Below, one piece after another: positions 7,113-41,398 of a DNA stretch of 64,000 nt; position 1 is the first letter of the stretch; each line of letters begins with the position of its first letter. The position numbers and the translations under genes are program-made. The stretch lies in the NCBI GenBank assembly GCA_951406725.2, contig OX597839.1, forward strand, positions 14,322,001 to 14,386,000. Reading direction: 5' to 3'. This stretch comes from Octopus vulgaris. Its lineage: Eukaryota. The notes beneath the pieces were generated by a model. It was not told where the DNA came from. It worked only from the letters and a program-made list of their open reading frames with translations, and did no database searches.

Positions 7113-7877
7113 ATGTCTGCAAAAATTAGGATCGCCAGTGACGTCGTCAGACCTTTTAATGGCGAAGGCGATGTAGTGGCCTGGATTCGCAAAATCAGGC
7201 TGGTGGCAAGACTGCAGGGCATAAGCGACGTGGCGAGTCTTATGGCGCTGTATTTAGAAGGGAGCGTGTTGACGCTCTACCTAGAGATGGATGAAGAGGA
7301 ACGGCTCAGCGAGGAGAATATAGAGCGACGCTTGCGTGATGCCTACACGGAATGCGAGTACACAGCTTTTGCTAAGCTAGGTGCAATCAGGTGGACGGGA
7401 GGCCAAGTGGATGACTTTGCATCAGAAGTTAGAAGGCTAGCGACTCTGGCCGGGTTTGCGGGAGAAGGGCTGGCGAGAGCAGCCCGGCTGGCGTTTGTCA
7501 ATGGTTTCCCCGACGATGTAGGGATTCACCTACAACGACTGCCCGGGATTAAAAAGATGCCGCTGAGCGAACTTGTGGCTCAGGTTCGCGTGTTGACGAG
7601 ACACTCTGGGCGGAAGGCGATAGCGATGGCGGTGACGGAGGCGCGTAAAGACGGACGACGTCCCGAGAAAGAGGTACAGAAGCTTACCGTGCAACGAGAG
7701 CGGCCGTTCTCAGGACGGTGTTTTAGATGCCAGGGACCACACATGGTGCGGGACTGCACGCAGCTGGGGCCCGTTTGCTATCGATGCAGGCAAACAGGGC
7801 ACATTGCCCGTGATTGCAACCAGGGAAACGACCGCGGGGAAGTTGCTGCCTCTCGAACTTTCCCCTCAAACGAGTAG
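7113..7877 (+). CDS. gag: Gag with two CCHC zinc knuckles
   Basis: CFRCQGPHMVRDC and CYRCRQTGHIARDC; 254 aa from an ATG. Confidence 0.9.
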   Translation: MSAKIRIASDVVRPFNGEGDVVAWIRKIRLVARLQGISDVASLMALYLEGSVLTLYLEMDEEERLSEENIERRLRDAYTECEYTAFAKLGAIRWTGGQVDDFASEVRRLATLAGFAGEGLARAARLAFVNGFPDDVGIHLQRLPGIKKMPLSELVAQVRVLTRHSGRKAIAMAVTEARKDGRRPEKEVQKLTVQRERPFSGRCFRCQGPHMVRDCTQLGPVCYRCRQTGHIARDCNQGNDRGEVAASRTFPSNE

Positions 7878-10027
7878 AGGCGCTATTGGAGACGCTGCCA
7901 TTGATTGACGTGGAGGCTGAGGGGGAGACGTTCAAGGCCCTTGTGGATACGGGCTGTACGACCACCCTGGTGACTTCGAGGGTGACGAAGGAATGGAACG
8001 AGGTGAGTAGTGTCCGGGCGGTCGACGGCAGCGAAATCCGTTGCAGAGGCAGCAGCAAAGTAGAGATAGTGGTGTGCGGCGCGACGCTAAGGCTGCAGGC
8101 AATTGTGGCCGAACGCGTGATAGATGGAGTTGATGTGGTGATGGGGATGGACGCCATCAACTGCCTCGGTGGCGTCAGTGTTGTGGGAAATGAGGTCACT
8201 TTCGGAAGCGTGGGGGCGTCGTGCACTGCGAGTCAGGATCGCCAGAGAGAGCAGAGCCCCGCGAGGGACTGCGCCGCTTACACCATCGAGGACAAAGACT
8301 TTCAGGCGGCGTTCGATGGTCAGCGGTGGACGATAGAGTGGCGATGGAAGGACGAGCCCCCGACGCTGGAGAACAGGGTGAGCTGTTACCAGCATACCCT
8401 GAAAGGCCACGCCAGGGTCGAGTTTGAAGACGAGGTGGAGAGGTGGATCGAGGAAGGGGTCCTTGTCCCTTGGAAGGAGGAGGTAGCGGGCGGAGTGCTA
8501 CCCCTGATGGCGGTGGTGCAGCCTACGAAGGGAAAAGTCAGACCGGTGCTGGACTTCAGGGAGCTAAACCAGCACATATCGTGTCACACGGGAGGTGAGG
8601 CGACAGACGTTTGTGGCGAGGCATTACGTAAGTGGAGACAGTCGACTGAGGCAGCGACGATTGTCGACTTGAGATCGGCATACTTGCAGCTCCATGTGAG
8701 CGACAAACTGTGGCGATATCAGCTGGTGCGGTACAAGGGCCGGACGTACTGTCTAACCAGGCTGGGTTTCGGGCTGAATTCCGCTCCGAAGATCATGGCG
8801 GCAGTGCTTAGGTCCGTCCTAGGGAAAGACGGCAAGATTAGACAGGCCACCAGCTCCTACATTGACGACATTTTGGTGGACGAAACTGTAGTGCCAGCCG
8901 ACGAGGTAGTTAGACATCTGGAGAAGTTCGGACTGATTGCTAAGCCACCGGAGTCGATTGAAGGGGGAGCCGCGCTGGGGCTGAAACTGCGAAGAGATGG
9001 ATCAGGTGAATTGATGTTCCGGAGAGGAAATGAAATCCCAGAGCTGAGTTCCAGCGTCAGCAGGAGAGAGCTGTTCTCGGTGTGTGGGAAGTTGGTCGGT
9101 CACTACCCGATCGCTGGATGGCTGTGCACAGCGTGTAGTTACACCAAGAGACGAGCAGAAGGAGAGAGGTGGGGCGACAAGGTGGGAGAAGGGACGGTGG
9201 CGATGATGCAGGAAATCCTAGAGAGGACAAGAGCGGAAGACCCGGTCAGGGGGAACTGGTACGTGCCCAAGACGAAATGCGGGACCGTCTGGTGTGATGC
9301 TAGCAGTATAGCGATAGGGGTGGTGTTGGCAATCGAAGGCACTGCGGTGGAGGACGCGGCCTGGCTTCGGAAAGCAGATGATTTCAACCACATCAATGTC
9401 GCCGAATTAGACGCGCTGCTGAAAGGGGTGAACTTGGCCTTGAAATGGGGGCTGCGCACGATTGAAATCCGGACGGATTCGGCCACTGTGCTTGGCTGGG
9501 TAGGATCGGTGACCACCGGTGACAGGAGAGTGCGGACGAAAGGTGCTGCGGAGATGTTAGTGAAGCGCCGTCTAGGAGTTCTAGGTGAATTGATCGCCGA
9601 GTTCGGACTGAAGCTGAACGTGGTTTTCGTGCCTTCGGAGAAAAACAGGGCGGACGTACTGACCAGGGTGAAAAGAGCGTGGTTGGAAGAACCGAAGGAG
9701 GCCAGGAAAGGGATAGCTGCGGCGTGTCGGTTGGATGACTCTGAACTGAAGAAACTGCATGCTATGCATCACCTGGGTGTGGACAGGACCCTGTATCTGT
9801 CGAAAAAAATTGATGCTGACGTCACTAGGAGAAGCGTCCGGAAGGTGGTCGGGAGCTGCGACAGGTATCAGTCCATCGACCCTGCTCCGTGTGGGCATGA
9901 ACAGGGAAACCTTTCCGTGGAGCAGAACTGGAAAAGGCTAGCTGTGGATGTGACACACTACCGTCAGCGAATGTATCTCTCCATGGTCGACTGCGGGCCG
10001 GGCCGGCTGGCCATTTGGAGGAGTTGA
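7814..10027 (+). CDS. pol: Pol: aspartic protease, reverse transcriptase, RNase H, integrase N-terminus
   Basis: LVDTG; DLRSAYLQ, RLGFGLNSAP, YIDD; WCDAS/AELDA/RTDS; HAMHHLG..SCDRYQ zinc finger; VDVTH. Confidence 0.9.
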   Translation: MQPGKRPRGSCCLSNFPLKRVEALLETLPLIDVEAEGETFKALVDTGCTTTLVTSRVTKEWNEVSSVRAVDGSEIRCRGSSKVEIVVCGATLRLQAIVAERVIDGVDVVMGMDAINCLGGVSVVGNEVTFGSVGASCTASQDRQREQSPARDCAAYTIEDKDFQAAFDGQRWTIEWRWKDEPPTLENRVSCYQHTLKGHARVEFEDEVERWIEEGVLVPWKEEVAGGVLPLMAVVQPTKGKVRPVLDFRELNQHISCHTGGEATDVCGEALRKWRQSTEAATIVDLRSAYLQLHVSDKLWRYQLVRYKGRTYCLTRLGFGLNSAPKIMAAVLRSVLGKDGKIRQATSSYIDDILVDETVVPADEVVRHLEKFGLIAKPPESIEGGAALGLKLRRDGSGELMFRRGNEIPELSSSVSRRELFSVCGKLVGHYPIAGWLCTACSYTKRRAEGERWGDKVGEGTVAMMQEILERTRAEDPVRGNWYVPKTKCGTVWCDASSIAIGVVLAIEGTAVEDAAWLRKADDFNHINVAELDALLKGVNLALKWGLRTIEIRTDSATVLGWVGSVTTGDRRVRTKGAAEMLVKRRLGVLGELIAEFGLKLNVVFVPSEKNRADVLTRVKRAWLEEPKEARKGIAAACRLDDSELKKLHAMHHLGVDRTLYLSKKIDADVTRRSVRKVVGSCDRYQSIDPAPCGHEQGNLSVEQNWKRLAVDVTHYRQRMYLSMVDCGPGRLAIWRS
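7823..7881 (+). promoter_or_regulatory. -1 programmed ribosomal frameshift signal (slippery site plus pseudoknot)
   Basis: G GGA AAC in gag frame at 7823-7829; 6-nt spacer; stem GGGGAAGTT/AACTTTCCCC; loop GCCTCT can pair with AGAGGC at 7876-7881; pol lies in the -1 frame. Confidence 0.8.
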
Positions 10028-10692
10028 GATCGGGCATTGCTGACGAGATCGCGCAGATCCTGAACGGGATATTTTTAGAGAGAGGTCCCGTGGAAGAACT
10101 ACTGATGAACAACGGGGCGGCGTTTCGTTCGGAAGCATTGAGGGTTATGCTTGATCGGTGGAATGTGCGACGCTTGTTCAGAGCAGTGTATAGGCCGAGC
10201 GGTAACGGGATCGAGGAGAGACACCATCGGACAGTCAAGGCCATAGCGGAAAGAGGGCACATTTCGCCGCTTGAAGCAGTTTTTTGGTACAACTTGTCTC
10301 CCCGATCCGGACAGGCTGAGGAATCTGTGCCGCAGAGAGCTGTGTTCAAATATGAATGGAGGCACCCGAGCAAAGCGCCGGAGGGTCACGAGGAAGAGAA
10401 GGGACCCGTTCGCGTGAAAATAGGGGAGGAAGTCTGGGTCAAGCCACCAAAGGCGCGCTGTACGTCTCAATGGAGCAGAGGAACGGTGACGGCGATCAAT
10501 TCCAGAAGCAACGTATCCGTAGATGGAACACCACAACACGTCTTGGACCTTCGCAGGATTGTTGCTTCGACGGATGATGATTCTGGAGAGGGGGAGAACG
10601 AGGAGCCCAGCTTGAAAAGATCTCGACGAGCAAGGCGCTCTCCCGGTTGGATGGTGGACTACAACATGGAGCGGAGAGATTGTGATCTTTAA
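10015..10692 (+). pseudogene. Integrase core and C-terminus, separated from pol by a frameshift near 10020
   Basis: LLMNNGAAF (DNG expected), YRPSGNGIEERHHRTVK, GEEVWVK. Confidence 0.85.
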
Positions 10693-11507: not shown

Positions 11508-14500
11508 CAAATTTGAATTAGCAATTTTGTCCAGATTTTCTGGATGCAATATTTTGACATATTTTGTTTTCTGATAACTTTTGTGATTTGATACTAAATG
11601 ATAGTGAGAATATATTTATCAGAGATCTCTGAAATGTAAACAGTTTTCATAATACAAAATGTGTTAAAATATTGCCAATAAGTACTAAAAAAAAAAAATT
11701 TGAATTAGCAATTCTCTTCACATTTTTATGGGTATTTGCAATATTTTGACTCATTTTGTATTTTATAAACTGTGACGAGTGATCTCGGGTAAATATAAGT
11801 TACCTGATTAATAATAAGTTTATATTTATCAAAAATATATCTAAAATGTCAAAACTTATCAAAATACAAAATATTTCAAAGTATTGCATATAAGTACTAA
11901 TTAAAAATGCTTCAAAATATTGTAAATAAGTGCTAAAAACCAAAAAATTTGAATTTGCGATTTTGTTTCTATTTTATGCTTATTTGCAATATTTTGTACA
12001 CATTTTGTTTTCTGAAAACTTTTGTGACTTGGGTGATCTCTTGATAAGTTACGTGTGAAATGTCAAAACTTTTAAGAATACAAAATATGTTACCTGATTG
12101 ATAGTGAGACAACTTTATCAAAGAGATCACTAAAGTGTCAAATGTTTTGAGGATACAGAATGTGTCAAAAAAGTACTAAGGAAAAAAACAAATTTGAATT
12201 AATAATGTTCACTTTGTATGATTATTTGCAATATTCTGAGACATTTTGTTTTTCTGAAAACTTTTCTGACTTGAGTTATCTGTTAGGTAAATATAAATTA
12301 ACTGATTATACTTATCAAAGAGATCACTATTAGGTCAAAAGTTTTATGGATACAAAATGTCAAAGTATTGCAAATAAGTACTAGAAGAAAACTGTATTAG
12401 CAATTTTGTTGACTTTCTTATGCTTATATGCAATATTCTAACACATTTTGTTTTCTGAAGACGTTTATGACTTCTGATCTCTTTGCTAAATATAAGATTA
12501 TATTTATTAAGTTTATAGTTATCAAAGAAATTTTTCTGGATACTAATATTTTGACATATGTTTTCCGATAACTTTTGTGATTTGATACTAAATGATAGTG
12601 AGAATATATTTATCAAAGAGATCACTGAAATGTAAAAAGTTTTCATGATACAAAATGTGTTAAAATATTGCCAATAAGTACTAAAGAAAAAAATTTGAAT
12701 TAGCAATTCTCTTCACATTTTTATGGGTATTTGCAATATTTTGACTCATTTTGTATTTTAAAAACTGTGACGAGTGATATCGGGTACATATAAGTTTCCT
12801 GATTAATAATAAGTTTATATTTATCAAAAATATATCTAAAATGTCAAAACTTATCAAAATACAAAATATTTCAAAGTATTGCATATAAGTACTAATTAAA
12901 AATGCTTCAAATTATTGTAAATAAGTGTTAAAAACCAACAAATTTGAATTTGCGATTTAGTTTCTATTTTATGCTTATTTGCAATATTTTGACACATTTT
13001 GTTTTCTGAAAACTTTTGTCAAGAGATATCTGTTACGTAAATATAAGTTAACTGATTGGATACCAAATGTGTCAAAGTATTGCAAATAAGTACTAGAAGA
13101 AAACTGTATTAGCAATTTTGTCCTCTTTCTCATGCTTATATGCAATATTCTAACACATTTTGTTTTCTAAAAACTTTTATGACAAGTGATTTCTTTGCTA
13201 AATATAAAAAATATTGTAAATAACTTTTGTCAAGAGATATCTGTTACGTAAATATAAAGTTAACTGATTGGATACCAAATGTGTCAAAGTATTGCAAATA
13301 AGTACTAGAAGAAAACTGTATTAGCAATTTTGTCCTCTTTCTCATGCCTTATACCCAATATTCTAACACATTTTGTTTTCTAAAAACTTTTTATGACAAG
13401 TTATTTCTTTGCTAAATATGAAGTAACTAATTGATAATAAGATTTTAGTTATTTATAAGTTTATAGTTATTATAGAATGTTTTCTGGATACAAAATATGT
13501 CAAAATATTGCAAATATGTACTAAAAAACAAATTTGAATTAGCAATTTTGTCCACATTTTTATGCAATATTTTGACATATTTTGTTTTCTGATAACTTTT
13601 GTGATTTGATACTAAATGATAGTGAGAATATATTTATCACAGATCTCTGAAATGTAAAAAGTTTTCATAATACAAAATGTGTTAAAATATTGCCAATAAG
13701 TACTAAAAAAAAAAAATTTGAATTAGCAATTCTCTTCACATTTTTATGGGTATTTGCAATATTTTGACACATTTTGTATTTTAAATACTGTGATATCTCG
13801 GGTACATATAAGTTACCTGATTAATAATAAGTTTATATTTATCAAAAATATATCTAAAATGTCAAAACTTATCAAAATACAAAATATTTCAAAGTATTGC
13901 ATATAAGTACTAATTAAAAATGCTTCAAATTATTGTAAATAAGTGCTAAAAACCAACAAATTTGAATTTGCGATTTTGTTTCTATTTTATGCTTATTTGC
14001 AATATTTTGACACATTTTGTTTTCTGAAAACTTTTGTCAAGAGATATCTGTTACGTAAATATAAGTTAACTGATTGGATACAAAATGTGTCAAAGTATTG
14101 CAAATAAGTACTAGAAGAAAACTGTATTAGCAATTTTGTCCACTTTCTCATGCTTATATGCAATATTCTAACACATTTTGTTTTCTAAAAACTTTTATGA
14201 CAAGTGATTTCTTTGCTAAATATGAAGTAACTAATTGATAATAAGATTTTAGTTATTTATAAGTTTATAGTTATTATAGAAAGTTTTCTGGATACAAAAT
14301 ATGTCAAAATATTGCAAATAAGTACTAAAAAACAAATTTGAATTAGCAATTTTGTCCACATTTTTATGCAATATTTTGACATATTTTGTTTTCTGATAAC
14401 TTTTGTGATTTGATACTAAATGATAGTGAGAATATATTTATCAGAGATCTCTGAAATGTAAAAAGTTTTCATAATACAAAATATGTTAAAATATTGCCAA

Positions 14501-17500
14501 TAAGTACTAAAAAAAAAAAAATTGAATTAGCAATTCTCTTCACATTTTTATGGGTATTTGCAATATTTTGACTCATTTTGTATTTTATAAACTGTGACGA
14601 GTGATCTCGGGTAAATATAAGTTACCTGATTAATAATAAGTTTATATTTATCAAAAATATATCTAAAATGTCAAAACTTATCAAAATACAAAATATTTCA
14701 AAGTATTGCATATAAGTACTAATTAAAAATGCTTCAAAATATTGTAAATAAGTGCTAAAAACCAACAAATTTGAATTTGCGATTTTGATTCTATTTTATG
14801 CTTATTTGCAATATTTTGACACATTTTGTTTTCTGAAAACTTTTGTGACTTGGGTGATCTCTTGATTAATATAAGTTACGTGTAAAATGTCAAAACTTTT
14901 AAGAATACAAAATATGTTACCTGATTGATAGTGAGACAACTTTATCAAAGAGATCACTAAAGTGTCAAATGTTTTGAGGATACAGAATGTGTCAAAAAAG
15001 TACTAAGGAAAAACAAATTTGAATTAGCAATGTTCACTTTTGTATTATTCTTTGCAATATTCTGAGACATTTTGTTTTCTGAAAACTTTTGTGACTTGAG
15101 TTATCTGTTAGGTAAATATAAATTAACTGATTATATTTACCAACGAGATCACTAATATGTCAAAAGTTTTAGGGATACAAAATGTGTCAAAGTATTGCAA
15201 ATAGAGAACAAGAAATTGAATTAGCAGTTTTGTTCCCTTTGTTATGATTATATGCAATATTTTAACACATTTTCTTTTTTGAAATCTTTTGCGACGAGTG
15301 ATCTTGGTATATATAAGGTAACTGATTGATAATAAGAGTGCATATAAGTACTAATAAAAAATGCTTCAAAATATTGTAAATAAGTGCTAAAAACCAACAA
15401 ATTTGAATTTGCGATTTTGTTTCTATTTTATGCTTTTTTGCAATATTTTGACACATTTTGTTTTCTGAAAACTTTTGTCAAGAGATATCTGTTAGGTAAA
15501 TATAAGTTAACTGATTAATAATAAGATTATACTTATCAAAGAGATCACTATCAGGTCAAAAGTTTTATGGATACAAAATGTGTCAAAGTATTGCAAATAA
15601 GTACTAGAAGAAAACTGTATTAGCAATTTTGTTGACTTTCTTATGCTTATATGCAATATTCTAACACATTTTGTTTTCTGAAGACGTTTATGACTTCTGA
15701 TTTCTTTGCTAAATATAAGATTATATTTATTAAGTTTATAGTTATCAAAGAAATTTTTCTGGATACTAATATTTTGACATATGTTTTCCGATAACTTTTG
15801 TGATTTGATACTAAATGATAGTGAGAATATATTTATCAAAGAGATCACTGAAATGTAAAAAGTTTTCATGATACAAAATGTGTTAAAATATTGCCAATAA
15901 GTACTAAAGAAAAAAAATTTGAATTAGCAATTCTCTTCACATTTTTATGAATATTTGCAATATTTTGACTCATTTTGTATTTTAAAAACTGTGACGAGTG
16001 ATCTCGGGTAAATATAAGTTACCTGATTAATAATAAGTTTATATTTATCAAAAATATATCTAAAATGTCAAAACTTATCAAAATACAAAATATTTCAAAG
16101 TATTGCATATAAGTACTAATTAAAAATGCTTCAAAATATTGTAAATAAGTGCTAAAAACCAACAAATTTGAATTTGCGATTTTGTTTCTATTTTATGCTT
16201 ATTTGCAATATTTTGACACATTTTGTTTTCTGAAAACTTTTGTCAAGAGATATCTGTTACGTAAATATAAGTTAACTGATTGGATACCAAATGTGTCAAA
16301 GTATTGCAAATAAGTACTAGAAGAAAACTGTATTAGCAATTTTGTCCTCTTTCTCATGCTTATATGCAATATTCTAACACATTTTGTTTTCTAAAAACTT
16401 TAATGACAAGTTATTTCTTTGCTAAATATAAAGTAACTAATTGATAATAAGATTTTAGTTATTTATAAGTTTATAGTTATTATAGAAAGTTTTCTGGATA
16501 CAAAATATGTCAAAATATTGCAAATAAGTACTAAAAAACAAATTTGAATTAGCAATTTTGTCCACATTTTTATGCAATATTTTGACATATTTTGTTTTCT
16601 GATAACTTTTGTGATTTGATACTAAATGATAGTGAGAATATATTTATCAGAGATCTCTGAAATGTAAAAAGTTTTCATAATACAAAATGTGTTAAAATAT
16701 TGCCAATAAGTACTAAAAAAAAAAATTTGAATTAGCAATTCTCTTCACATTTTTATGGGTATTTGCAATATTTTGACTCATTTTGTATTTTAAAAAACTG
16801 TGACGAGTGATATCGGGTACATATAAGTTACCTGATTAATAATAAGTTTATATTTATCAAAAATATATCTAAAATGTCAAAACTTATCAAAATACAAAAT
16901 ATTTCAAAGTATTGCATATAAGTACTAATTAAAAATGCTTCAAAATATTGTAAATAAGTGCTAAAAACCAACAAATTTGAATTTGCGATTTGTTTCTATT
17001 TTATGCTTATTTGCAATATTTTGACACATTTTGTTTTCTGAAAACTTTTGTCAAGAGATATCTGTTACGTAAATATAAGTTAACTGATTGGATACCAAAT
17101 GTGTCAAAGTATTGCAAATAAGTACTAGAAGAAAACTGTATTAGCAATTTTGTCCACTTTCTCATGCTTATATGCAATATTCTAACACATTTTGTTTTCT
17201 AAAAACTTTTATGACAAGTTATTTCTTTGCTAAATATGAAGTAACTAATTGATAATAAGATTTTAGTTATTTATAAGTTTATAGTTATTATAGAAAGTTT
17301 TCTGGATACAAAATATGTCAAAATATTGCAAATAAGTACTAAAAAACAAATTTGAATTAGCAATTTTGTCCACATTTTTATGCAATATTTTGACATATTT
17401 TGTTTTCTGATAACTTTTGTGATTTGATACTAAATGATAGTGAGAATATATTTATCAGAGATCTCTGAAATGTAAAAAGTTTTCATAATACAAAATATGT

Positions 17501-20500
17501 TAAAATATTGCCAATAAGTACTAAAAAAAAAAAATTTGAATTAGCAATTCTCTTCACATTTTTATGGGTATTTGCAATATTTTGACTCATTTTGTATTTT
17601 ATAAACTGTGACGAGTGATCTCGGGTAAATATAAGTTACCTGATTAATAATAAGTTTATATTTATCAAAAATATATCTAAAATGTCAAAACTTATCAAAA
17701 TACAAAATATTTCAAAGTATTGCATATAAGTACTAATTAAAAATGCTTCAAAATATTGTAAATAAGTGCTAAAAACCAACAAATTTGAATTTGCGATTTT
17801 GTTTCTATTTTATGCTTATTTGCAATATTTTGACACATTTTGTTTTCTGAAAACTTTTGTGACTTGGGTGATCTCTTGATAAGTTACGTGTGAAATGTCA
17901 AAACTTTTAAGAATACAAAATATGTTACCTGATTGATAGTGAGACAACTTTATCAAAGAGATCACTAAAGTGTCAAATGTTTTGAGGATACAGAATGTGT
18001 CAAAAAAGTACTAAGGAAAAACAAATTTGAATTAGCAATGTTCACTTTTGTATTATTCTTATGCAATATTTTGAGACATTTTGTTTTCTGAAAACTTTTG
18101 TGACTTGAGTTATCTGTTAGGTAAATATAAATTAACTGATTACACTTATCAAAGAGATCACTAATATGTCAAAAGTTTTAGGGATACAAAATGTGTCAAA
18201 GTATTGCAAATAGAGAACAAGAAATTGAATTAGCAGTTTTGTTCCCTTTGTTATGATTATATGCAATATTTTAACACATTTTGTTTTTGAAAACTTTTGC
18301 GACGAGTGATCTTGTTGGTAAATATAAGGTAACTGATTGATAATAAGAGTGCATATAAGTACTAATAAAAAAATGCTTCAAAATATTGTAAATAAGTGCT
18401 AAAAACCAACAAATTTAAAGTTGCAATTTTGTTTCTATTTTATGCTTATTTGCAATATTTTGAGACATTTTGTTTTATGAAATCTTTTGTCAAGAGATAT
18501 CTGTTAGGTAAATATAAGTTAACTGATCGATAATAAGATTATACTTATCAAAGAGATCACTATCAGGTCAAAAGTTTTATGGATACAAAATGTGTCAAAG
18601 TATTGCAAATAAGTACTAGAAGAAAACTGTATTAGCAATTTTGTTGACTTTCTTATGCTTATATGCAATATTCTAACACATTTTGTTTTCTGAAGACGTT
18701 TATGACTTCTGATTTCTTTGCTAAATATAAGATTATATTTATTAAGTTTATAGTTATCAAAGAAATTTTTCTGGATACTAATATTTTGACATATGTTTTC
18801 CGATAACTTTTGTGATTTGATACTAAATGATAGTGAGAATATATTTATCAAAGAGATCACTGAAATGTAAAAAGTTTTCATAATACAAAATGTGTCAAAA
18901 TATTGCAAAAGTACTAAAAAAAAAAAATTTGAATTAGCAATTCTCTTCACATTTTTATGGGTATTTGCAATATTTTGACTCATTTTGTATTTTAAAAACT
19001 GTGACGAGTGATCTCGGGTACATATAAGTTTCCTGATTAATAATAAGTTTATATTTATCAAAAATATATCTAAAATGTCAAAACTTATCAAAATACAAAA
19101 TATTTCAAAGTATTGCATATAAGTATAATTAAAAATGCTTCAAAATATTGTAAATAAGTGCTAAAAACCAACAAATTTGAATTTGCGATTTTGTTTCTAT
19201 TTTATGCTTTTTTGCAATATTTTGACACATTTTGTTTTCTGAAAACTTTTGTCAAGAGATATCTGTTACGTAAATATAAGTTAACTGATTGGATACCAAA
19301 TGTGTCAAAGTATTGCAAATAAAGTACTAGAAGAAAACTGTATTAGCAATTTTGTCCACTTTCTTATGCTTATATGCAATATTCTAACACATTTTGTTTT
19401 CTAAAAACTTTTATGACAAGTGATTTCTTTGCTAAATATAAAGTAACTAATTGATAATAAGATTTTAGTCTTTAGATAATAAGATTTTAGTCATTTTGTT
19501 TTCTGAAAACTTTTGTGACCTGGGTGATCTCTTGATAAGTTACGTGTAAAATGTCAAAACTTTTAAGAATACAAAATATGTTACCTGATTGATAGTGAGA
19601 CAACTTTATCAAAGAGATCACTAAAGTGTCAAATGTTTTTAGGATACAAAATGTGTCAAAATATTGCAAAAAAGTACTAAGGAAAAACAAATTTGAATTA
19701 GCAATGTTCACTTTTGTATTATTCTTTGCAATATTCTGAGACATTTTGTTTTCTGAAAACTTTTGTGACTTGAGTTATCTGTTAGGTAAATATAAATTAA
19801 CTGATTACACTTATCAAAGAGATCACTAATATGTCAAAAGTTTTAGGGATACAAAATGTGTCAAAGTATTGCAAATAGAGAACAAGAAATTGAATTAGCA
19901 GTTTTGTTCCCTTTGTAATGATTATATGCAATATTTTAACACATTTTGTTTTTTGAAAACTTTTGCGACGAGTGATCTTGTTGGTAAATATAAGGTAACT
20001 GATTGATAATAAGAGTGCATATAAGTACTAATAAAAATGCTTCAAAATATTGTAAATAAGTGCTAAAAACCAACAAATTTAAAGTTGCAATTTTGTTTCT
20101 ATTTTATGCTTATTTGCAATATTTTGAGACATTTTGTTTTATGAAAACTTTTGTCAAGAGATATCTGTTAGGTAAATATAAGTTAACTGATTAATAATAA
20201 GATTATACTTATCAAAGAGATCACTATCAGGTCAAAAGTTTTATGGATACAAAATGTGTCAAAGTATTGCAAATAAGTACTAGAAGAAAACTGTATTTGC
20301 AATTTTGTTGACTTTCTTATGCTTATATGCAATATTTTAACACATTTTGTTTTCTGAAAACTTTTGTGACTTCTGATTTCTTTGCTAAATATAAGATGAT
20401 AATATTTATTGATAAGTTTATAGTTATTAAAGAAAGTTTTCTGGATACTAAATATGTCAAAATATTGTAAATAAGTACTAAAAACAAATTTGAATTAGCA

Positions 20501-23500
20501 ATCTTGTTCACATTTTTATGCAATATTTTGACATATTTTGTTTTCTGATAACTTTTGTGATTTGATACTAAATGATAGTGAGAATATATTTATCAAAGAG
20601 ATCACTGAAATGTAAAAAGTTTTCATAATACAAAATGTGTTAAAATATTGCCAATAAGTACTAAAAAAAAAAAATTTGAATTAGCAATTCTCTTCACATT
20701 TTTATGAATATTTGCAATATTTTGACTCATTTTGTATTTTAAAAACTGTGACGAGTGATCTCGGGTAAATATAAGTTACCTGATTAATAATAAGTTTATA
20801 TTTATCAAAAATATATCTAAAATGTCAAAACGTATCAAAATACAAAATATTTCAAATTATTGCATATAAGTACTAATTAAAAATGCTTCAAAATATTGTA
20901 AATAAGTGCTAAAAACCAACAAATTTGAATTTGCGATTTTGTTTCTATTTTATGCTTATTTTCAATATTTTGACACATTTTGTTTTCTGAAAACTTTTGT
21001 GACTTGGGTGATCTCTTGATTAATATAAGTTACGTGTAAAATGTCAAAACTTTTAAGAATACAAAATATGTTACCTGATTGATAGTGAGACAACTTTATC
21101 AAAGAGATCACTAAAGTGTCAGATGTTTTTAGGATACAGAATGTGTCAAAATATTGCAAAAAAGTACTAAGGAAAAACAAATTTGAATTAGCAATGTTCA
21201 CTTTTGTATTATTCTTTGCAATATTCTGAGACATTTTGTTTTCTGAAAACTTTTGTGACTTGAGTTATCTTTTGTGACTTGTAAATATAAATTAACTGAT
21301 TACACTTATCAAAGAGATCACTAATATGTCAAAAGTTTTAGGGATACAAAATGTGTCAAAGTATTGCAAATAGAGAACAAGAAATTGAATTAGCAGTTTT
21401 GTTCCCTTTGTAATGATTATATGCAATATTTTAACACATTTTGTTTTTTGAAAACTTTTGCGACGAGTGATCTTGTTGGTAAATATAAGGTAACTGATTG
21501 ATAATAAGAGTGCATATAAGTACTAATAAAAAATGCTTCAAAATATTGTAAATAAGTGCTAAAAACCAACAAATTTAAAGTTGCAATTTTGTTTCTATTT
21601 TATGCTTATTTGCAATATTTTGAGACATTTTGTTTTATGAAATCTTTTGTCAAGAAATATCTGTTAGGTAAATATAAGTTAACTGATTGATAATAAGATT
21701 ATACTTATCAAAGAGATCACTATCAGGTCAAAAGTTTTATGGATACAAAATGTGTCAAAGTATTGCAAATAAGTCCTAGAAGAAAACTGTATTAGCAATT
21801 TTGTTGACTTTCTTATGCTTATATGCAATATATCTTACAAACAACTTGCACATGCAAGTGCTACCAGTTAAAAGCTCCGTATATCGGAAGCTAGCAAGTG
21901 TATGGGGTCATCAGGAGAGAATGCGCGCCGTTTCGGGGCCTACCTCTCAACACATTTTGTTTTCTGAAGACGTTTATGACTTCTGATCTCTTTGCTAAAT
22001 ATAAGATTATATTTATTGATAAGTTTATAGTTATCAAAGAAATTTTTCTGGATACTAAATATGTCAAAATGTTGCAAATGAGTACTAAAACACAAATTTG
22101 AATTAGCAATCTTGTTCACATTTTTATGCAATATTTTGACATATTTTGTTTTCCGATAACTTTTGTGATTTGATACTAAATGATAGTGAGAATATATTTA
22201 TCAAAGAGATCACTGAAATGTAAAAAGTTTTCATAATACAAAATGTGTTAAAATATTGCCAATATGTATTAAAAAAAAAAAATTTGAATTAGCAATTCTC
22301 TTCACATTTTTATGGGTATTTGCAATATTTTGACTCATTTTGTATTTTAAAAACTGTGACGAGTGAACTCGGGTAAATATGTTACCTGATTAATAATAAG
22401 TTTATATTTAAGATTATACTTATCAAAGAGATCACTATCAGGTCAAAAGTTTTATGGATACAAAATGTGTCAAAGTATTGCAAATAAGTACTAGAAGAAA
22501 ACTGTATTAGCAATTTTGTTGACTTTCTTATGCTTATATGCAATATTCTAACAAATTTTTTTTTCTGAAGACGTTTATGACTTCTGATCTCTTTGCTAAA
22601 TATAAAATTATATTTATTGATAAGTTTATAGTTATCAAAGAAATTTTTCTGGATACTAAATATGTCAAAATGTTGCAAATGAGTACTAAAACACAAATTT
22701 GAATTAGCAATCTTGTTCACGTTTTTATGCAATATTTTGACATATTTTGTTTTGTGATAACGTTTGTGTCTTGAGTTATCACTTGGGTTACCTGAGTGAT
22801 AGTTATATATATTTATCAAATATATTTATCAAAGTTATCATTGAAATGTAAAAAGTTTTCTGAATACAAAATGTGTTAAAATATTGCCAATAAGTACTAA
22901 AAATAAATTTGAATTAGCAATTCTCTTCACATTTATATGGTTATTTGCAATATTTTGTATTTTAAAAACTGTGACGAGTGAACTCGGGTAAATATGTTAC
23001 CTGATTAATAATAAGTTTATATTTATCAAAAATATATCTAAAATGTCAAACTTAGCAAAATACAAAATGTTTTAAAGTAATGCATATAAGTACTAATTAA
23101 AAATGCTTCAAAATATTGTATATAAGTGCTAAAAACCAACAAATTTACTTTGACACATTTTGTTTTCTGAAAACGTTTGTTACCTGTAATATGTCAAAAC
23201 TTTTAAGAATACAAATTTGAATTAGTAATGTTCACTTTTATATGCTTCTGTGCAATATTTTGACACAGTTTGTTTTCTGAAAACTTTTGTGAAGTCACAA
23301 AAGTGATGTCTTGATTAATATGTTACCTGTAAAATGTCAAAACTTTTAAGAATACAAAATATGTTACCTGTAAAATGTCAAAACTTTTAAGAATACAAAA
23401 TATATTACCTGATTGACCGTGAGATAACTTTATCAATAAGATCAAAAATTGTCAAAAGTTTTAAGGATACAGAATGTGTCAAAATATTGCAAAAAATTAA

Positions 23501-26500
23501 GTACTAAGGAAAAACAAATTTGAATTAGCAATGTTCACTTTTGTATGCTTCCTTGCAATATTTTGACACAGTTATTTTTCTGAAAACTTTTGTGACTTGA
23601 GTTAACTTTTAGGTAATTATAAGTTAACTGATTGATAATAAGACTATACTTATCAAAGAGATCACTAATATGTGAAAAGTTTTATGGATACAAAATGTGT
23701 CGTAATATTGCAACTAACTACTAGAGAAGAAGAAACTGAATTAGCAGTTTTGTTCCCTTTCTTATGATTATATGCAATATTTTAACTCATTTTGTTTTCT
23801 GAAAACTTTTGTGAGGAGTGATCTCGTTTGTAAATATAAGTTAAATGATTGATAATAAGATTATACTTATCAAAGGTCAAAAGTTTTATGGATACAAAAT
23901 ATTGTCAAAATAAGTACTAGAAGAAAACGGTATTAGCAATTTTGTTCACTTTCTTATGCTTATATGCAATATTCTAACACATTTTGTTTTCTGAAAACTT
24001 TTGTGATGAGGGATCTCTTTGCTAAATATAAGTTAACTCATTGATAATAAGATTATATTTACTGATAAGATTATAGTTATCAAAGAAAGTTTTCTGGATA
24101 CAAAATATGTCAAAATATTGCAAATAAGTACTAAAAAACAAATTTGAATTAGCAATTTTGTTCACATTTTTATGCAATATTTTGACACATTTTGTTTTCT
24201 GATAACTTTTGTGACTTGAGTGATCACTTGGGTTACCTGATTGATAGTAAGAATATTTTTATCAAAGAGATCACTGAAATGTAAAAGAGATCACTGAAAT
24301 GTAAAAAGTTTTCAAAATACAAAATGTTAAAATATTGCCAATAAGTACTAAAAATAACAAATTTGAATTAGCAATTCTCTTCACATTTGTAATGTTATTT
24401 TCAATATTTTGACACATTTTGTATTTTAAAAACTGTGATTAATAATAAGATTATATTTATCAAAAATATAACTAAAATGTCAAAACTTATCAAAATACAA
24501 AATGTTTCAATGTATTGCATATAAGTACTAATAAAAAATGCAATTTGCAATTTTGTTTCTATTTTATATTTATTTGCAATAATTTGACACATTTTTTTTT
24601 CAGAAAACTTTTGTGACTTGGGTGATCTCTTGATTAATATAAGTTACGTGTAAAATGTCAAAACTTTTAAGAATACAAAATATGTTAAATGATAGTTAGT
24701 GAGATAACTTTATCAAAGAGATCATTAAAGTGTCAAAGTTTTTCAGGATACAGAATGTGTCAAAATATTGCAAAAAAGTACTAAGGAAAAACAAATTTGA
24801 ATTAGCAATATTCACTTTTGTATGCTTCTATGCAATATTCTGAGACATTTTGTTTTCTGAAAACTTTTGTGACTTGAGTTATCTGTTAGGTAAATATAAG
24901 TTAACTGATTGATAATAAGACTATACTTATCAAAGAGATCACTAATATGTAAAAAGATTTATGGATACAAAATGTGTCGAAGTATTGCAAATAACTACTA
25001 GAGAAGAAGAAACTGAATTAGCAGTTTCGTTCCCTTTCTTGCAATATTTTAACTCATTTTGTTGTCTGAAAACTTTTGTGAGGAGTGATCTAGTTGGTAA
25101 ATATAAGGTAAAAATAAGATTGATAATAAGATTATATTTATGGATAAGATTATAGTTATTATAGAAGTTTTCTGGATACAAAATGTGTCAAAATATTGCA
25201 AATAAGTAATATATTGACACATTTTGTATTTTAAATACTGTGAAGTCTATTTTATGCTTATTTCCAATATTTTGAGACATTTTGTTTTCTGAAAACTTTT
25301 GTGACTTGAGTTATATGTTAGGTTATAAGTTAACTGTTTAATAATAAGATTATAGTTATCGATAATCTTATAGTTACTATTGAATGTTTTCTGGATACAA
25401 AATATGTCAAAATATTGCAAATAAGTACTAAAAAACAAATTTGAATTAGCAATTTTGTTCACATTTTATGCAATATTTTGACATATTTTGTTTTCTGATA
25501 ACTTTTGTGATTTGAGTGATAACTTGGGTTACCTCAGTGATAGTAAGAATATATTCATCAAAGAGATCACTGAAATGTAAAAAGTTTTTAGAATACAAAA
25601 TGTGTTAAAATATTGCCAATAAGTACTATAAAAAAAAAATTTGAATTATCAATTCTCTTCACATTTTTATGGTCATTTGCAATATTTTGACACATTTTGT
25701 ATTTTAAAAACTGTGACGAGTGATCTCGGGTAAATATAAATTACCTGATTAATAATAAGATTATATTTATCAAAAATATAACTAAAATGTCAAAATACAA
25801 AATGTTTCAAAGTATTGCATATAAGTACTAATAAAAATTGCTTCAAAATATTGAAAATAAGTGCTAAAAACAAACAAATTTGAATTTGCAATTTTGTTTC
25901 TATTTTATGCTTATTTGCAATATTTTGACATATTTTGTTTTCTGAAAACTTTTGTGACTTGGGTGACTTGATTAATATAAGTTACCTGTAAAATGTTAAA
26001 ACGCTTAAGAATACAAAATATGTTACCTGATTGATAGTGAGATAACTTTATCAAAGAGATCACTAAATTGTCAAAAGTTTTCAGGATACAGAATGTGTCA
26101 AAATATTGCAAAAAAGTAAGTACTAAGGAAAAACAAATTTGAATTATCAAAGAGTTAACCAAAATGTCAAAACTTATCAGAATACAAAATGTTTCAAAGT
26201 ATTGCATATAAGTACTAATAAAAAATGCTTCAAAATATTGTAAATAAGTGCTAAAAACCAACAAATTTGAATTTGCAATTTTGTTTCTATTTTATGCTTA
26301 TTTCCAATATTTTGAGACATTTTATTTTCTGAAAACTTTTGTGACTCGAGTGATCTGATTGATAATAAGGTTATATTTATCCAAGAGATCACTAAAGTCT
26401 TCAAAGGTTTTTAGAATACAAATTGTTTCAAAATATTGCCAAACAGTACTAAAAAACAATAAATTTGTATTAGCAATTTCGTTCTCTTTCGTATGCTTAT

Positions 26501-32466: not shown

Positions 32467-32533
32467 TACTAAAAGAACTCAAAATACAGAAACCAAAGGA
32501 AAAAAGAAGTTGAAATCATACTTCAAAGACGAA

Positions 32534-34528
32534 ATGGAAAATTTACCGCATCCAAAAGACCTAGACTTTAATCAGGAAAATCTAGCCGCAGCATGGAAAA
32601 AGTGGAAAAAAGAATTCAATCTCTTTTTGATAGCAACAGAAAGTGACATGAAGCCAGACAAAGTAAAAACTTCAATGTTTTTAACTTGCATCAGTTCTAA
32701 AGACCGAGATATCCATTCCACACTGGATTTCGATTCACCCGACGAAGAAATGAACCTTCAGACAGTAATCGAAAAATTCGATGCATATTGTGAACCCAGG
32801 AAAAACATAACTTTCCTAAGACACAAATTCTTCACATGTGGACAAGCGGAACATCAAAAATTCGATGAGTACGTAGTAGAGTTGCGCCAAAAGGCACAAC
32901 AGTGCGAATTCGGCAACCTCACAGACAGTCTCACCAAAGATATTCTGATATGTGGAATCAGAGACATGAGATTAAGAGAAAGATTATTGAGAGAACCAAA
33001 TTTAGACCTACAAAAAACAATTCAAGCAGGTCAGAGTGCAGAGCAAACACGACTCCAATCAAGGATACTAAATGCCACATCCGAAACAAGAGATAACGAA
33101 ATCTCGAGGGTATATAGTCAACACGACAGAAAAGGCGCCAAAACTCAAATAACCCGCCATATGCAATCCAGACATCAAAACGAACAAGGCGGAAGTGACA
33201 GAAAGCCCGCGAAGTTTCAAGCGCCAAGTCAACACTACGTCACTAACTGTCACTATTGTGGTTATAATCACAAAAGAAATAAATGCCCAGCATTTCACAA
33301 GACATGTGAAAAATGCAAGAAACAAGGACACTATGCAAAAATGTGCAAATCAAGAAAATTTGTACATAAAGTAGAGATACATACCGACGATGAATCAGAT
33401 GACGATACACATGCACTCGAAATGATCACTGCAAATAATTCCCACGTGCACAAAATCGAAAAGTTCAAGACTCCAAAAGACATTTGGACGGTCGAACTAA
33501 AAGTGAACAACTCGAATGTAACATTCAAAATAGATACAGGAGCAGACGTAACCGTACTGCCATTCAGAGAATATAGAAATATAATTCCAAAACCACAACT
33601 GCAAAAAACTTCAACTCGATTATCAGCTTATAATAACACAGCTATAAAAGTGCTAGGAAAATGCACAGCAGTCATTAAATACAAAGAATTATCAAAGCAA
33701 ATAAAATTCATTGTTGCAAAAACAAACTCGCACGCAGTTATAGATGCAAAGACAGCTAAAGATCTGAACCTGATTCAGAGAATTTCAAAAATAAATTCGT
33801 CGAACACAAACGACATATTAGAAAAATATGAAGACTGTTTCGGAGAAATCGGCACTTTGTCAATAACACATCATATCACAGTGGATCCACAAATAACTCC
33901 TGTAATTCATCCACCAAGATCGGTTCCTTTTTCTATAAAAGAAAAACTCAACAAAGAATTAAAAAGAATGACAGAATTAGATATCATAAAACCTGTTAGT
34001 GAACCTACAGACTGGGTAAATTCCCTAGTCATCGTTGAAAAAGCCAACGGAAAACTCCGACTCTGTTTAGACCCCAAGAATCTAAACAAAGCCATAAAAA
34101 GGCAACATTTCAAACTCCCTACAGCGGAGGACATTTTTGCACAAATGCATAACCCTAAATATTTTTCAAAACTAGATGCATCTAATGGATACTGGCAAAT
34201 TCCAGTTGACGAAGAAAGCTCCCATCTTTTAACGTTCAACACACCTTTTGGAAGGTATCGCTTCACACGACTACCCTTTGGAATTCACAGCGCCAGTGAA
34301 GTTTTCCAAAAAGAAATTTCAAAAATAATAGAGGGCATAGAAGGAGCAAGAAATTCACAGGATGACATCATAATCTGGTCCAACACTTTAGAAGAACACA
34401 CAAATAGACTACAACAAGTTTTCGATCGAATCCGAAAGCACGGATTAAAGTTAAATAAATCAAAGTGTATCTTCTATGAATCACAAATCAAGTACCTTGG
34501 GCATATATTTTGTCGCGGGAAAAGATGA
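32534..34528 (+). pseudogene. Mag-like Gypsy gag-pol in a single frame, truncated within RT
   Basis: CHYCGYNHKRNKC, CEKCKKQGHYAKMC, IDTGAD, LDASNGYWQ, RLPFGI, SQDD, KYLGH; RNase H and integrase missing. Confidence 0.9.
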
Positions 34529-37052: not shown

Positions 37053-37489
37053 TTAGAAATGAGAATTTGAAGTTGTGTGAGAGGCATTGGCAAAGGTCAC
37101 AGACGCGCAAGTTGAAGGAAGGCGATAAATGATTGAAAGGTAGTAAAATTATTCCAACATAAAAAATAGTGTACTTTATCGTGAAGTATATTTGCCACCA
37201 AAATGTGGCTAACCTTTAAGGGTAGATGCTACTGTAGCTCGTAGCCCCAGGAAGACATCTTTTCCAGCTGGCTATTGATACACTTTCTGTGCCTTGTCAG
37301 TATTTGCAAAGAAAAGTCATCTTTCCCGTCTTCAACCTGACATGATACACATGGATCCGAGTTTCTGGGTATTGACATTTCATCAGCATGTGACAACCAC
37401 CGGTTCGAGATGAGAAGTGGTGCTCAATGCAAAGAACCACTTCCCATATGTATGTATGAATATAATATACATACATACATATATATATG

Positions 37490-37579
<90 letters not shown>

Positions 37580-37586
<7 letters not shown>

Positions 37587-40500
37587 AATATTAGGGAATA
37601 AATCCAAATTTACAGGGAAAAAATCAGATTTAGGATTAAATCCAATTTTATAGTAAAATATTATATAATATTATTAGAGACAAAACCACTATTTTGCAAA
37701 ACAAACAAGGAAAGACTTAATCAATACATAAAATTTTAATAAAAAGTAAAAAAAAACGCCACTACAATTGTTTCTTGTCCTGATCGACAATCTTCAGGTG
37801 GACTTCCAATCTAAAATATCAATATTTTAAAATATAAAAATAATAATTTTAAAATAATTAAAGTATTAATGAAAAAAATATAAATATATAATCTATATAT
37901 AACCTATATATAATCCATATATAATCAATATATAAACAATATATAAACTAAAATAAACCTATCAACAATTAAATATAAAATATAAAATATAAAATATAAA
38001 ATATAAAACAAAACAAAAAATAAACTATATATACACCCATACACATATAACTAATTATATATAACCATATCTAAATACATACACTAAATCACACACCTAT
38101 ATATATATCCCTGTCTAGGCAACGATAAATAAATAAAATAGCCAAATACTTCAACACAATACTTATTCATACTCCCTCACACACACATACAACCCACATT
38201 CCCGCTCTAGAAACGGACATCATTTAAAACCATGAATGGAGAAATGGAACAAATGGAATTAAAAATTATATTCACTTGGTAAAACGAACATTACTCAAAA
38301 ATTATGAATGAAACAATGCAACAAAACAACAGACATCGCAAATAGACACAAATTACCACGAATTCCTTAATAAAACCACCATGACAAACCAAAACTCACA
38401 AAAACATATAATGATAAAATCTCCCTTTACTAAACTCTATAACATACCTATATAGCAATCCCCCTAACCTAAACATTCACACACAAATACACACACGTAA
38501 ACCACACACCCACGACACATACAAATACCCACCCCACTCACACATACCTATACATACATATAAACCTCAACATATACTCCAAAAACACACTCAACCCCAC
38601 ACAGACAAACAAACACATACATCCCCAAACCTATATAGCAAACCCATAAACACATTCACACACAAATATACATACGTAAAACACACACCATATACATATA
38701 CATACTCACTAAACTCGATATATACAACAATATTAACACACCCACACTCACACAGATAAACAAATTACACAACCAAAACACGCACACACTCACACACAAT
38801 CCCACATACATAAACACTCCAAAGAAAAACAATATTATTACACATAATACGATATATAAAATACATCGTAAGTAACCAGAATATCAAAAATAACAATATG
38901 ACATAAGGAGAAATAATATACATACTTTCAAGTCAGTTTCAAATTATGAAGTGAAATTAAATTCTAAGCCGTTAAAAACATCAAACCAAAATTACGTTAC
39001 CATAGGAACATAACTTATGTATAAAAAGAATACGCGCTATGGAAGCAAACGTCATTTAAAATTATGAATGGAGAAATAGAATAAATGGAATTAAAAATTA
39101 TATTCACGCGGTAAACTAACATTATTTAAAAAAATTATGAATGGATTATTTAATAAAACTACCATGATAAATTAAAACTCATAAAAACATAAATGATAAA
39201 ACCTCCCTTTACTAAACCCTATAACATACTTATATAGCAATCCCTTTAACCTATACATTCACACACAAATACACACACGTAAACCACACACCCATAACAA
39301 ATACAAACACCCACCCCACTCACACACACCCACAAGTACATATAAGCCTCAACATATACACCAAACAAAATTACGTTACCAAGGAACCTAACATATGTAT
39401 CAAAAGTATTCCCGCTCTGGAAACGAACATCTTTTAAAATTATGAATGGAGAAATGGAATAAATGGAACTAAAAATAATATTCACGTGGTAAAACGAACA
39501 CCACTCAAAAATTATGAATGAAATAATGCAATAAAACAACAAACATCGTAAATAGACAAATTACTACGAATTCCTTAATAAAACCACCATGACAAACCAA
39601 AACTCATAAAAACATATAATGATAAAATCTCCCTTTGCTAAACTCTATAACAAACCTATATAGCAATCCCCCTAACCTAAACATTCACACACAAATACAC
39701 ACACGTAAACCACAGACCCACGACTTATACAAATACCCACCTCACTCACACATACCTATACTAACGTATAAACCTCAATATACACCAAAAACCCACTCCC
39801 TCCCCACACAGACAAATTAACACATACATCCCCAAACCTATATAACAAACCCATATACACATTCACACACAAATATACATACGTAAAACACACACACACA
39901 ACATATACATATACTCCCTCACATATACGCATATACATACTCACTAAACTCGATATATACAACGATATTTACACACCCACACTCATACAGATAAATAAAT
40001 TATACAACTAAAATACGCACACACTCACACACAATCTCACATACATAAACACTCCAAAGAAAAACAACATTATTACACATAAAACGATATATAAAATACA
40101 TCGTAATTAACCAGAATATCAAAAATAACAATATGACATAAGGAGAAATAATATACATACTTACAAGTCAGTTTCAAATTATGAAGTGAAATTAAATTCT
40201 AAGCCGTTAAAAAAATCAAACCAAAATTACGTTGCCATAGGAACATAACTTATGTATAAAAAAAGAATACGCGCTACGGAAGCAAACGCCATTTAAAATT
40301 ATGAATGGAGAAATAGAATAAATGGAATTTAAAACTATATTTACGCGGCAAACCAACACTACTCAAAAAAATTATGAATGGATTCTTTAATAAAACTACC
40401 ATGATAAATTATTATATGTATTTATGAGTCTTAGTTTATCTTGGTAGTCCTAATAAACAATTTGTAGCAATCTACGTCTATCCCCGATATCTGCTATTTT

Positions 40501-41360
40501 ACTACATTATTCCATTCCCAACCCTAAGCAACGCTAGCCTACCACCCGGTTACAATTCCCAATTCCACTTATTCCACTCATAATTCCAATGACGCTCGCC
40601 TCCATAGTGCTACGTATGAGCCTCAACATATGCACCGGTGATTCGCTTCCACATCCGTGCGGATGGGTAAGAGTATGCATTGAGTGTAGTGATGGGGCTC
40701 CCTTTGCTATGCACGTTTGTACCTGTGTGGTAGTCTCCATGTGTATATTCGCGCACGGGTATAAGTGCGGGGGGGTATACACGCACGGCATGTGCGTGTG
40801 CTCCCTCACATGTACATGTGCATGCTTATTGGGCTCGATATGTGCAACGGTGTGTTCGCACCCGCATTCATGCGGATGGGTGAATTGCACAATTAAAATA
40901 CGCACACGTGTGTGTGTACGTTTTTTGGTTGTGTAGTTTGTTCATCCGGGTGTGAGTGGGTGTGAGCGTATTGTTGTGGATGTCGAGTTTGATACGTATG
41001 TATATGAGTGTGTTTGGGGGGTTGTACGTATGTGTTGTGTGTGTGTGTTTTGCGTATGTGTGTTTGTGTATGGATGAATATATGGGGATTGCTATGTGGG
41101 TATAATTGGGTATGGAGGGGGAGTTTTGTCATTGTATGGGTGTGGGTTTCATTTGTGATGGTGGTTTGTTGGTGATTTGTGGTATGTTCTGTATATTTGG
41201 GTTAGTTATGTATTGTTCTTGTGTGTGTAATTGTATACATGTATGATTGGTGTGAGTGGGATTGCGCCCATTTTTTGGGGATGTATGTGTTTATTTAAAA
41301 TTTTATGTATTGATTAAGTCTTTCCTTGTTTGTTTTGCAAAATAGTGGTTTTGTCTCTAA

Positions 41361-41372
<12 letters not shown>
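37580..41372 (-). mobile_element. Non-coding Penelope-like element between (TA)n tracts: inverted termini, hammerhead, ~1.2-kb internal tandem units and fold-backs
   Basis: 78-bp inverted repeat 37662-37739 / 41295-41372; hammerhead at 37759-37801; units starting ~38200 and ~39410. Confidence 0.7.
37759..37801 (-). ncRNA. Minimal type-I hammerhead ribozyme motif, canonical core
   Basis: CCAC-CTGAAGA-TTGTC(GATCAG)GACAA-GAAA-CAATTG-TA-GTGG. Confidence 0.8.

Positions 41373-41398
<26 letters not shown>

Follow-up and report, generated by a model that had tools for sequence, protein, structure and literature searches.

Directional A-to-G changes in a fold-back Penelope-like retroelement of Octopus vulgaris suggest ADAR hyperediting fixed in the germline

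Repeat copies inside one retroelement of the Octopus vulgaris genome differ from one another in one direction, with A in one copy facing G in the other. Which process wrote these changes, and on which nucleic acid, is the question raised by this locus. It lies in a stretch of 64,000 nucleotides (the window; contig OX597839.1 of assembly GCA_951406725.2, positions 14,322,001 to 14,386,000), for which an original prediction, made from the letters alone, held that fold-back transcripts had been hyperedited by ADAR and then reverse transcribed into the germline. Judging from sequence comparison across the family, we consider it very probable that changes made by ADAR hyperediting became germline-fixed through retrotransposition and passed to daughter copies, in several successive rounds.

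The remainder of the window is likewise rich in repeats. Ty3/gypsy-like gag-pol frames, GC-rich and nearly intact, occupy 7113-10692 (motifs read by eye), and a second LTR-type gag-protease-RT frame of 672 aa is found at 32510-34528. An AT-rich satellite with subunits of ~200-217 bp and a higher-order period of about 0.8-1 kb extends over 11800-26300, and two inverted repeats on microsatellite-like arms lie at 1452-1683 and 4734-5523.

Identity, layout and strand of the element

A first look at the 2.8-Gb genome gave 1657 candidates for the 3' part of the element, 467 for the hairpin cassette and 1005 for the ORF part, which are not copy numbers, the best 40 of each having been scored; 60 stretches were read. 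The end at 37590, beside (TA)n, is common to most copies and the opposite end varies, while in many copies an inverted second arm is also present. Longer genomic copies continue past 41296 into a minus-strand ORF, intact at 840 aa in L034, 824 aa long in L048 and in two pieces in L090, and a tandem 5' pLTR, which is a copy of the 3' repeat, is present in L034, L037 and L090. Because the ORF, the hammerhead motif and the fixed 3' end all lie on the minus strand, this is the sense (RNA) strand. As the layout of ORF, pLTR and hammerhead matches descriptions of Penelope-like elements (PLEs), the stretch 37590-41296 reads, on sequence grounds, as a 5'-truncated PLE copy comprising the 3' non-coding region only (Table 1). 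A reading as a non-autonomous family was dropped, since the longer copies carry the ORF.

In the longer copies only, a single ORF appears to combine a reverse transcriptase (RT) with a C-terminal GIY-YIG, as in EN+ PLEs. Atlas look-alikes of the L034/L048-type protein, at 0.95-0.98, have HTH_animal, GIY-YIG and RVT_1 domains, and the PLE protein motifs YRDD, VYKC..YIG and Cys/His are visible by eye. A Pfam scan of the element's ORF protein gave neither an RT nor a GIY-YIG match. The PLE protein encoded at L034:2725-5247 has a long Asn/Lys-rich insert separating RT from endonuclease and is missed by both Pfam models. The other structural traits of EN+ PLEs, namely a partial tandem pLTR, an inverted 5'-truncated copy and a one-sided tail, were all found.

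PLEs with pLTR hammerheads share with the present element the RT and C-terminal GIY-YIG-type ORF, the partial tandem pLTR and the inverted 5'-truncated copy, together with a tail at one end, microsatellite targets and a type I hammerhead (PMC8557442, PMC4209133); the tails described are 30-40 bp long (PMC8557442). Unlike the described PLEs, the octopus element has 3' non-coding sequence of about 4.2 kb, whose nested fold-backs appear to record editing. Neither of these two papers, in its accessible text, mentions editing of PLEs.

The hammerhead that the original prediction placed on the minus strand is retained as a putative ribozyme in the pLTR on the sense strand. By eye, positions 37801-37759 hold the complete type I core (CCAC/GUGG as stem I, CUGAAGA, UUGUC/GACAA as stem II, GAAA, stem III and UA), whose letters are unchanged in the eight commonest variants, representing 65 of 73 arms, and a type I hammerhead in a pLTR of the same architecture has been described for PLEs (PMC4209133). 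The claim found no backing in Rfam, where searches in gathering and E-value modes returned no hammerhead and only microsatellite-driven miRNA noise, and the MFE fold of the region is without a hammerhead structure (z 0.39).

A 781-aa GIY-YIG family was considered as the source of the element's own ORF and rejected, BLASTP against the element's protein being not significant. It is a young PLE family with many open 781-aa frames, for example at C16:20838796 and C16:33685215 (150 of 6136 GIY-YIG candidates were scored). At 2 of 30 loci with an ORF fragment of this family, sequence related to the element's 3' end precedes the fragment on its 5' side, fused to it directly at L144:2596-2434 and separated by a TA-rich stretch at L128:2226-2150; template switching between PLE families may have produced this arrangement.

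Table 1. Coordinates of the element and its parts within the window
Feature	Position	Strand	Basis or remark
(TA)n microsatellite at insertion site	37460..37591, also 41363-41392	.	
Putative Penelope-like copy	37590..41296	-	Fixed end at 37590, other end variable; ORF on same strand in longer copies
68-nt terminal 'tail' extension	37590..37657	-	At one end only of palindromic insertions; second arms stop at 37658-37662
Putative type I hammerhead motif, short palindromic stem III, in 3' pLTR	37759..37801	-	Read by eye
Arm A partner and hot spot of T>C(+), equal to A>G(sense)	38190..38420	-	13 T>C against unedited precursor in L083
Tandem sub-repeats of 3' region	38198..40411	.	38198-39174 resembles 39408-40411; partial units 39030-39365, 40267-40407
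Post-inversion partner of arm C, with T>C(+) hot spot at 38690-38790	38620..38790	-	Helices of 78 bp and 56 bp predicted
Segment without inverted partner, unedited control	38821..39000	.	
Second partner of arm A; T>C(+) hot spot	39440..39630	-	Predicted 148-bp helix with 40411-40572; 10 T>C against unedited precursor in L083
Arm A	40408..40600	-	Repeat unit made an inverted copy by internal inversion; apparently edited afterwards
Arm B of older hairpin	40601..40907	+	47-50 of about 90 A changed to G before inversion
Arm C of older hairpin	40908..41296	+	22 of 41 sites changed in round 1; relatives gained T>C(+) at 40890-41090 in later rounds
Short inverted, 5'-truncated second copy of 3' end (terminal inverted repeat)	41290..41376	+	

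Direction of the changes in the hairpin and its inverted relatives

The observation from which the original prediction started is reproducible: 39946-40020 and 40831-40905 differ at 21 of 75 nt, 16 of the differences being A>G and none G>A, and a longer alignment (39892-40022 with 40779-40907) contains 28 A>G and 0 G>A. That both arms of the hairpin at 40908 had gained G on the plus strand was likewise borne out. Arm B and the reverse complement of arm C differ by 89 substitutions in 205 columns; 43 of these are G|A and 28 are T|C, whereas the reverse types A|G and C|T number 0 and 2. The predicted folding energy of this stretch is -234 kcal/mol on the plus strand and -98 on the minus strand.

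The tandem sub-repeats serve as templates and internal outgroups for polarising these changes. In 188 three-way columns that set the template beside both hairpin arms (order template/B/C), A/G/A occurs 46 times and T/T/C 19 times, with no template G>A, and the changed sites amount to 49 of the 91 A in arm B and 22 of the 41 T in arm C. Since each arm is an outgroup of the other, and since an unedited precursor of arm A survives, a G/C ancestor is excluded for these arms; polarised by outgroup, the variable sites in the arms tested were A/T in the older state, as the original prediction required. Within the B/C hairpin alone the 5'-neighbour contrast is weak (p 0.05, 0.08 and 0.007 in three trios), and three of the four 5'-G sites in arm C are changed.

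The second inverted pair, 40408-40576 with 38245-38415, has the reciprocal pattern attributed to it: of its 53 substitutions, C|T accounts for 26 and A|G for 14, whereas the reverse types T|C and G|A number 2 and 1. The copies examined for a state lacking fold-backs (L083, L107 and L108) hold hairpin B/C in its original orientation, reversed relative to window-type copies, which correspond to the L083 type with segment 2931-3894 inverted. Both hairpin arms have T>C on the plus orientation in L083 (22 and 44) and in L108 (23 and 41), and this is A>G on the RNA strand, the strand of hammerhead and ORF. The later internal inversion thus made the polarity look reversed, and through it arms A and C came to be inverted partners of repeats lying upstream. 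The prediction of at least two rounds of opposite polarity is upheld as to the number, which exceeds one, and corrected as to the polarity, both rounds having fallen on the same sense RNA.

Arm A can be compared with its unedited precursor, which survives in L083 and L108. A>G is found at 27 of 97 A in the window copy and at 42 of 97 in L097, and the arm A of L034 has a different subset of A>G sites. In the fold predicted for a natural early copy, 40411-40572 forms a 148-bp helix with 39459-39620, and 40910-41012 forms one of 78 bp with 38689-38789.

Successive rounds across the family

Changes were assigned by Fitch parsimony to the branches of a FastTree phylogeny of 69 copies or arms, rooted on L083; it excludes L032 (which overlaps L034), L107 and L108 (whose architecture differs), L120, L082's minus arm and any arm below 900 nt. 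On internal branches T>C(+) outnumbers A>G(+) by 326 to 37, despite A outnumbering T, and on terminal branches by 117 to 68; these event counts are inflated by homoplasy, conversion or tree error, as 126 of the 253 inferred C>T changes fall on sites that also show T>C, and tests at the level of sites suffer less from this. A cassette tree rooted at the L101 end, which would turn the changes into C>T and A>G, was rejected, because the precursor copies place the root at the opposite end; the bias among private transversions (T>A over A>T) speaks against it as well.

The T>C(+) events are concentrated along the element, with 113 events on 67 T in arm A and 3 on 83 T in the hammerhead repeat. Peaks occur at 38290-38390, 38690-38790, 39490-39590, 40390-40640, 40890-40990 and 41040-41090, and 38790-39040 and 39640-39790 stay at background level. 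As the original prediction anticipated, the sense A>G changes appear restricted to paired arms, both of which are changed: with pairing predicted from homology, 251 of 767 sites with an inverted partner are changed against 22 of 297 without one (p 7e-20), and with MFE helices 187 of 464 inside against 86 of 600 outside, although the hot regions were drawn after the peaks had been seen and the sites are not independent. The mirror change is flat in the same comparison by inverted partner (61/949 with, 37/563 without). Segments said to be almost unchanged proved to be so, with 6 substitutions in 180 and no bias between 38821-39000 and 40056-40235, and 2 in 83 in the terminal inverted repeat. In the ORF of the same RNA, 31 copies have A>G at 20/1071 and T>C at 18/906, a control confounded by purifying selection.

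ADAR has a 5'-neighbour order of U~A>C>G in vitro. In the hot regions of the family, the fraction of sites changed follows the RNA-strand 5' neighbour, being 82/125 (66%) after U, 75/106 (71%) after A, 25/79 (32%) after C and 5/28 (18%) after G (p 4e-5), and the 3' neighbour has a flat effect; outside the hot regions 5' G is not depleted (14/103). The predicted avoidance of 5' G is therefore visible at family scale and weaker in the old hairpin alone. The pattern fits the motif of invertebrate hyper-editing, in which upstream G is depleted and which reaches very high levels in octopus (PMC5625713).

The changes also come in clusters, as had been expected. Overdispersion among branches is 24 (chi2/df) against 1.4 for the mirror change, 13 branches have at least 12 T>C, and the bursts amount to 12-34 changes per branch, although one branch may cover more than one transposition. 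One branch has 21 T>C with 1 other change and another 13 T>C with 0 others, and after a branch with 31 events every later branch has at most 7 T>C. The two arms of palindromic insertions (L038, L044, L046, L047, L048, L089, L096, L101, L104, L105, L109 and L114) are tree sisters with few differences and without T>C excess, as though a single molecule had been the source of both or later homogenisation had evened them out.

The features expected of ADAR are thus found together: A>G as the only change, on the transcribed strand, apparent confinement to predicted duplexes, disfavour of 5' G, and clusters that reach about half of the A. The genome has matches to ADAR-type deaminase domains at four loci. 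G>A clusters on the sense strand, the mark of APOBEC-type DNA editing, were not found, the sense-strand excess being A>G.

The suggestion that editing explains the CA-rich/GT-rich strand skew of the element applies to a small part of it only, since the least-edited copy already shows it (A1189 C541 T596 G165, against A1220 C588 T571 G169 in the window copy). Documented editing covers only about 50 of the roughly 590 C, and it contributes nothing to the A excess; older editing rounds may have added to the skew, and the A excess on the plus strand cannot come from A-to-I. A second strand bias runs through the family at 37590-41296, with 63 G>A(+) against 24 C>T(+) events at 82 CpG sites, and per site T>A(+) is more frequent than A>T(+) among private and ladder changes. 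Neither excess is explained by ADAR.

Origin of the changes and their meaning

It is very improbable that the deamination took place on DNA, in sense-strand DNA hairpins or in RNA:DNA hybrids formed during transposition. Sense RNA and sense-strand DNA are indistinguishable from sequence alone, and ADARs edit DNA in hybrids at mismatches on model substrates (PMC12925331). Editing of the cDNA strand in a hybrid would, however, give A>G on the plus strand along the whole element, whereas the observed change affects the sense strand and is restricted to intramolecular duplexes, and its ~50% conversion matches dsRNA hyperediting (PMC12925331).

Misreading of template adenosines by the element's own reverse transcriptase, through DGR-like infidelity or structure-induced errors, deserves similarly little credence. 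It would affect the same strand, and there is a mild T>A(+) excess (A>U on RNA), but the duplex-restricted change consists of A>G alone, and arm A has no enrichment of T>A (0.10 per site against 0.05-0.16 elsewhere, internal branches). The A-rich ORF and the unpaired segments are spared, and avoidance of 5' G is a trait of ADAR (PMC5625713).

That the true direction was C>T/G>A, by APOBEC-like activity or methyl-C decay from a GC-rich ancestor, is hardly credible. In the background these changes are the most frequent, and CpG sites have elevated G>A as noted above, yet at the G sites of arm B both template and arm C have A, and at the changed sites of arm C both template and arm B have T; moreover, unedited precursors exist, and the G subsets differ among sister copies.

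An assembly or sequencing artefact, to which hairpins and microsatellites are prone, has a negligible chance of being the cause and is refuted at the family level: the 37 aligned copies of the hairpin cassette, the window included, have changes common to dozens of loci in a nested pattern, and contigs from four of four public runs, under three organism labels, give depth in 30 of 30 cassette bins. One run-derived contig (these are contigs, not raw reads) is identical to the cassette over 149 nt, and the contigs of X14, a run presumed rather than recorded to be RNA, which as contigs cannot show editing or expression, have the same variant spectrum as the DNA runs.

Hyperediting of fold-back RNA by ADAR, followed by reverse transcription into the germline in more than one round, is the core of the original prediction and is supported by the tests of polarity, duplex dependence, 5' neighbour, burstiness and independent data. 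The process would start from a family whose insertions have inverted 5'-truncated arms and internal inverted repeats, with the minus strand as sense. One fold-back junction would have been captured in the 3' region as hairpin B/C, about half of whose adenosines would then have been deaminated on the sense RNA. Surviving copies indicate that the ~1-kb segment holding the hairpin was later inverted in place. Further sense A>G followed in exactly the new partners, in the bursts of 12-34 per branch and in subsets that differ between sister lineages, and the small number of changes on later branches may reflect duplexes too mismatched by then. Inosine would have been read as G by reverse transcription, and the edited RNAs would still have been able to transpose, with edited copies acting as masters.

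Partial precedents exist. A>G hypermutation is known from avian retroviruses (Rous-associated virus as well as avian leukosis virus; Felder 1994, Hajjar & Linial 1995, as summarized in the review PMC12925331), where, as here, nearly 50% of A became G in an inverted repeat of a reverse-transcribed element and ADAR was held responsible. Those were single exogenous variants, whereas the octopus element is non-viral and germline-fixed, with changes that accumulated over successive masters and were inherited by many daughters. APOBEC 'DNA editing' has been reported for LTR retrotransposons of vertebrate genomes and for none in 19 invertebrate genomes, only LTR elements having been screened (PMC4866542). 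There too a host deaminase leaves clustered, strand-biased changes in genome-fixed retroelement copies, but the change is sense G>A by way of C deamination in cDNA, whereas here it is sense A>G tied to RNA duplexes, and edited copies found subfamilies. Hyper-editing of octopus repeat dsRNA and of the palindromic Harbinger repeat in Xenopus shares with the present case duplex dependence, upstream-G depletion and a weak downstream preference; those edits are in RNA only, and the present ones are in genomic DNA (PMC5625713). In our literature search no paper turned up in which ADAR edits had become fixed in a germline retroelement lineage and were passed down through it, a weak absence given the thin coverage of subscription journals, and the accessible text of PMC5974252 describes no such case. 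The parts that we regard as new are the iteration through master copies, the preserved series from precursor to product, and an element that builds its own editing substrate.

A broader reading is offered tentatively, and we consider it more doubtful than probable. ADAR would be a recurrent germline mutagen of PLEs in this genome, editing being a regular step of a life cycle in which the elements build their own inverted repeats at each insertion. The duplexes would be melted enough to escape dsRNA silencing, a measurable share of the repeat DNA of the genome would have been rewritten, and the copies would form a datable record of ADAR activity.

The octopus group is known for extreme editing. 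The present case is sequence evidence that A-to-I RNA edits can enter inherited DNA and be amplified there, and it implies that ADAR acts on retroelement RNA in germ cells or early embryos. On the practical side, genomic copies that look hyperedited can pass for RNA editing when reads are mapped to unedited paralogues. Edited retroelement RNAs are, on this evidence, not a dead end but founders of subfamilies, and the dated series of precursor, inversion and successive rounds offers a means of testing whether editing restricts or protects such elements.
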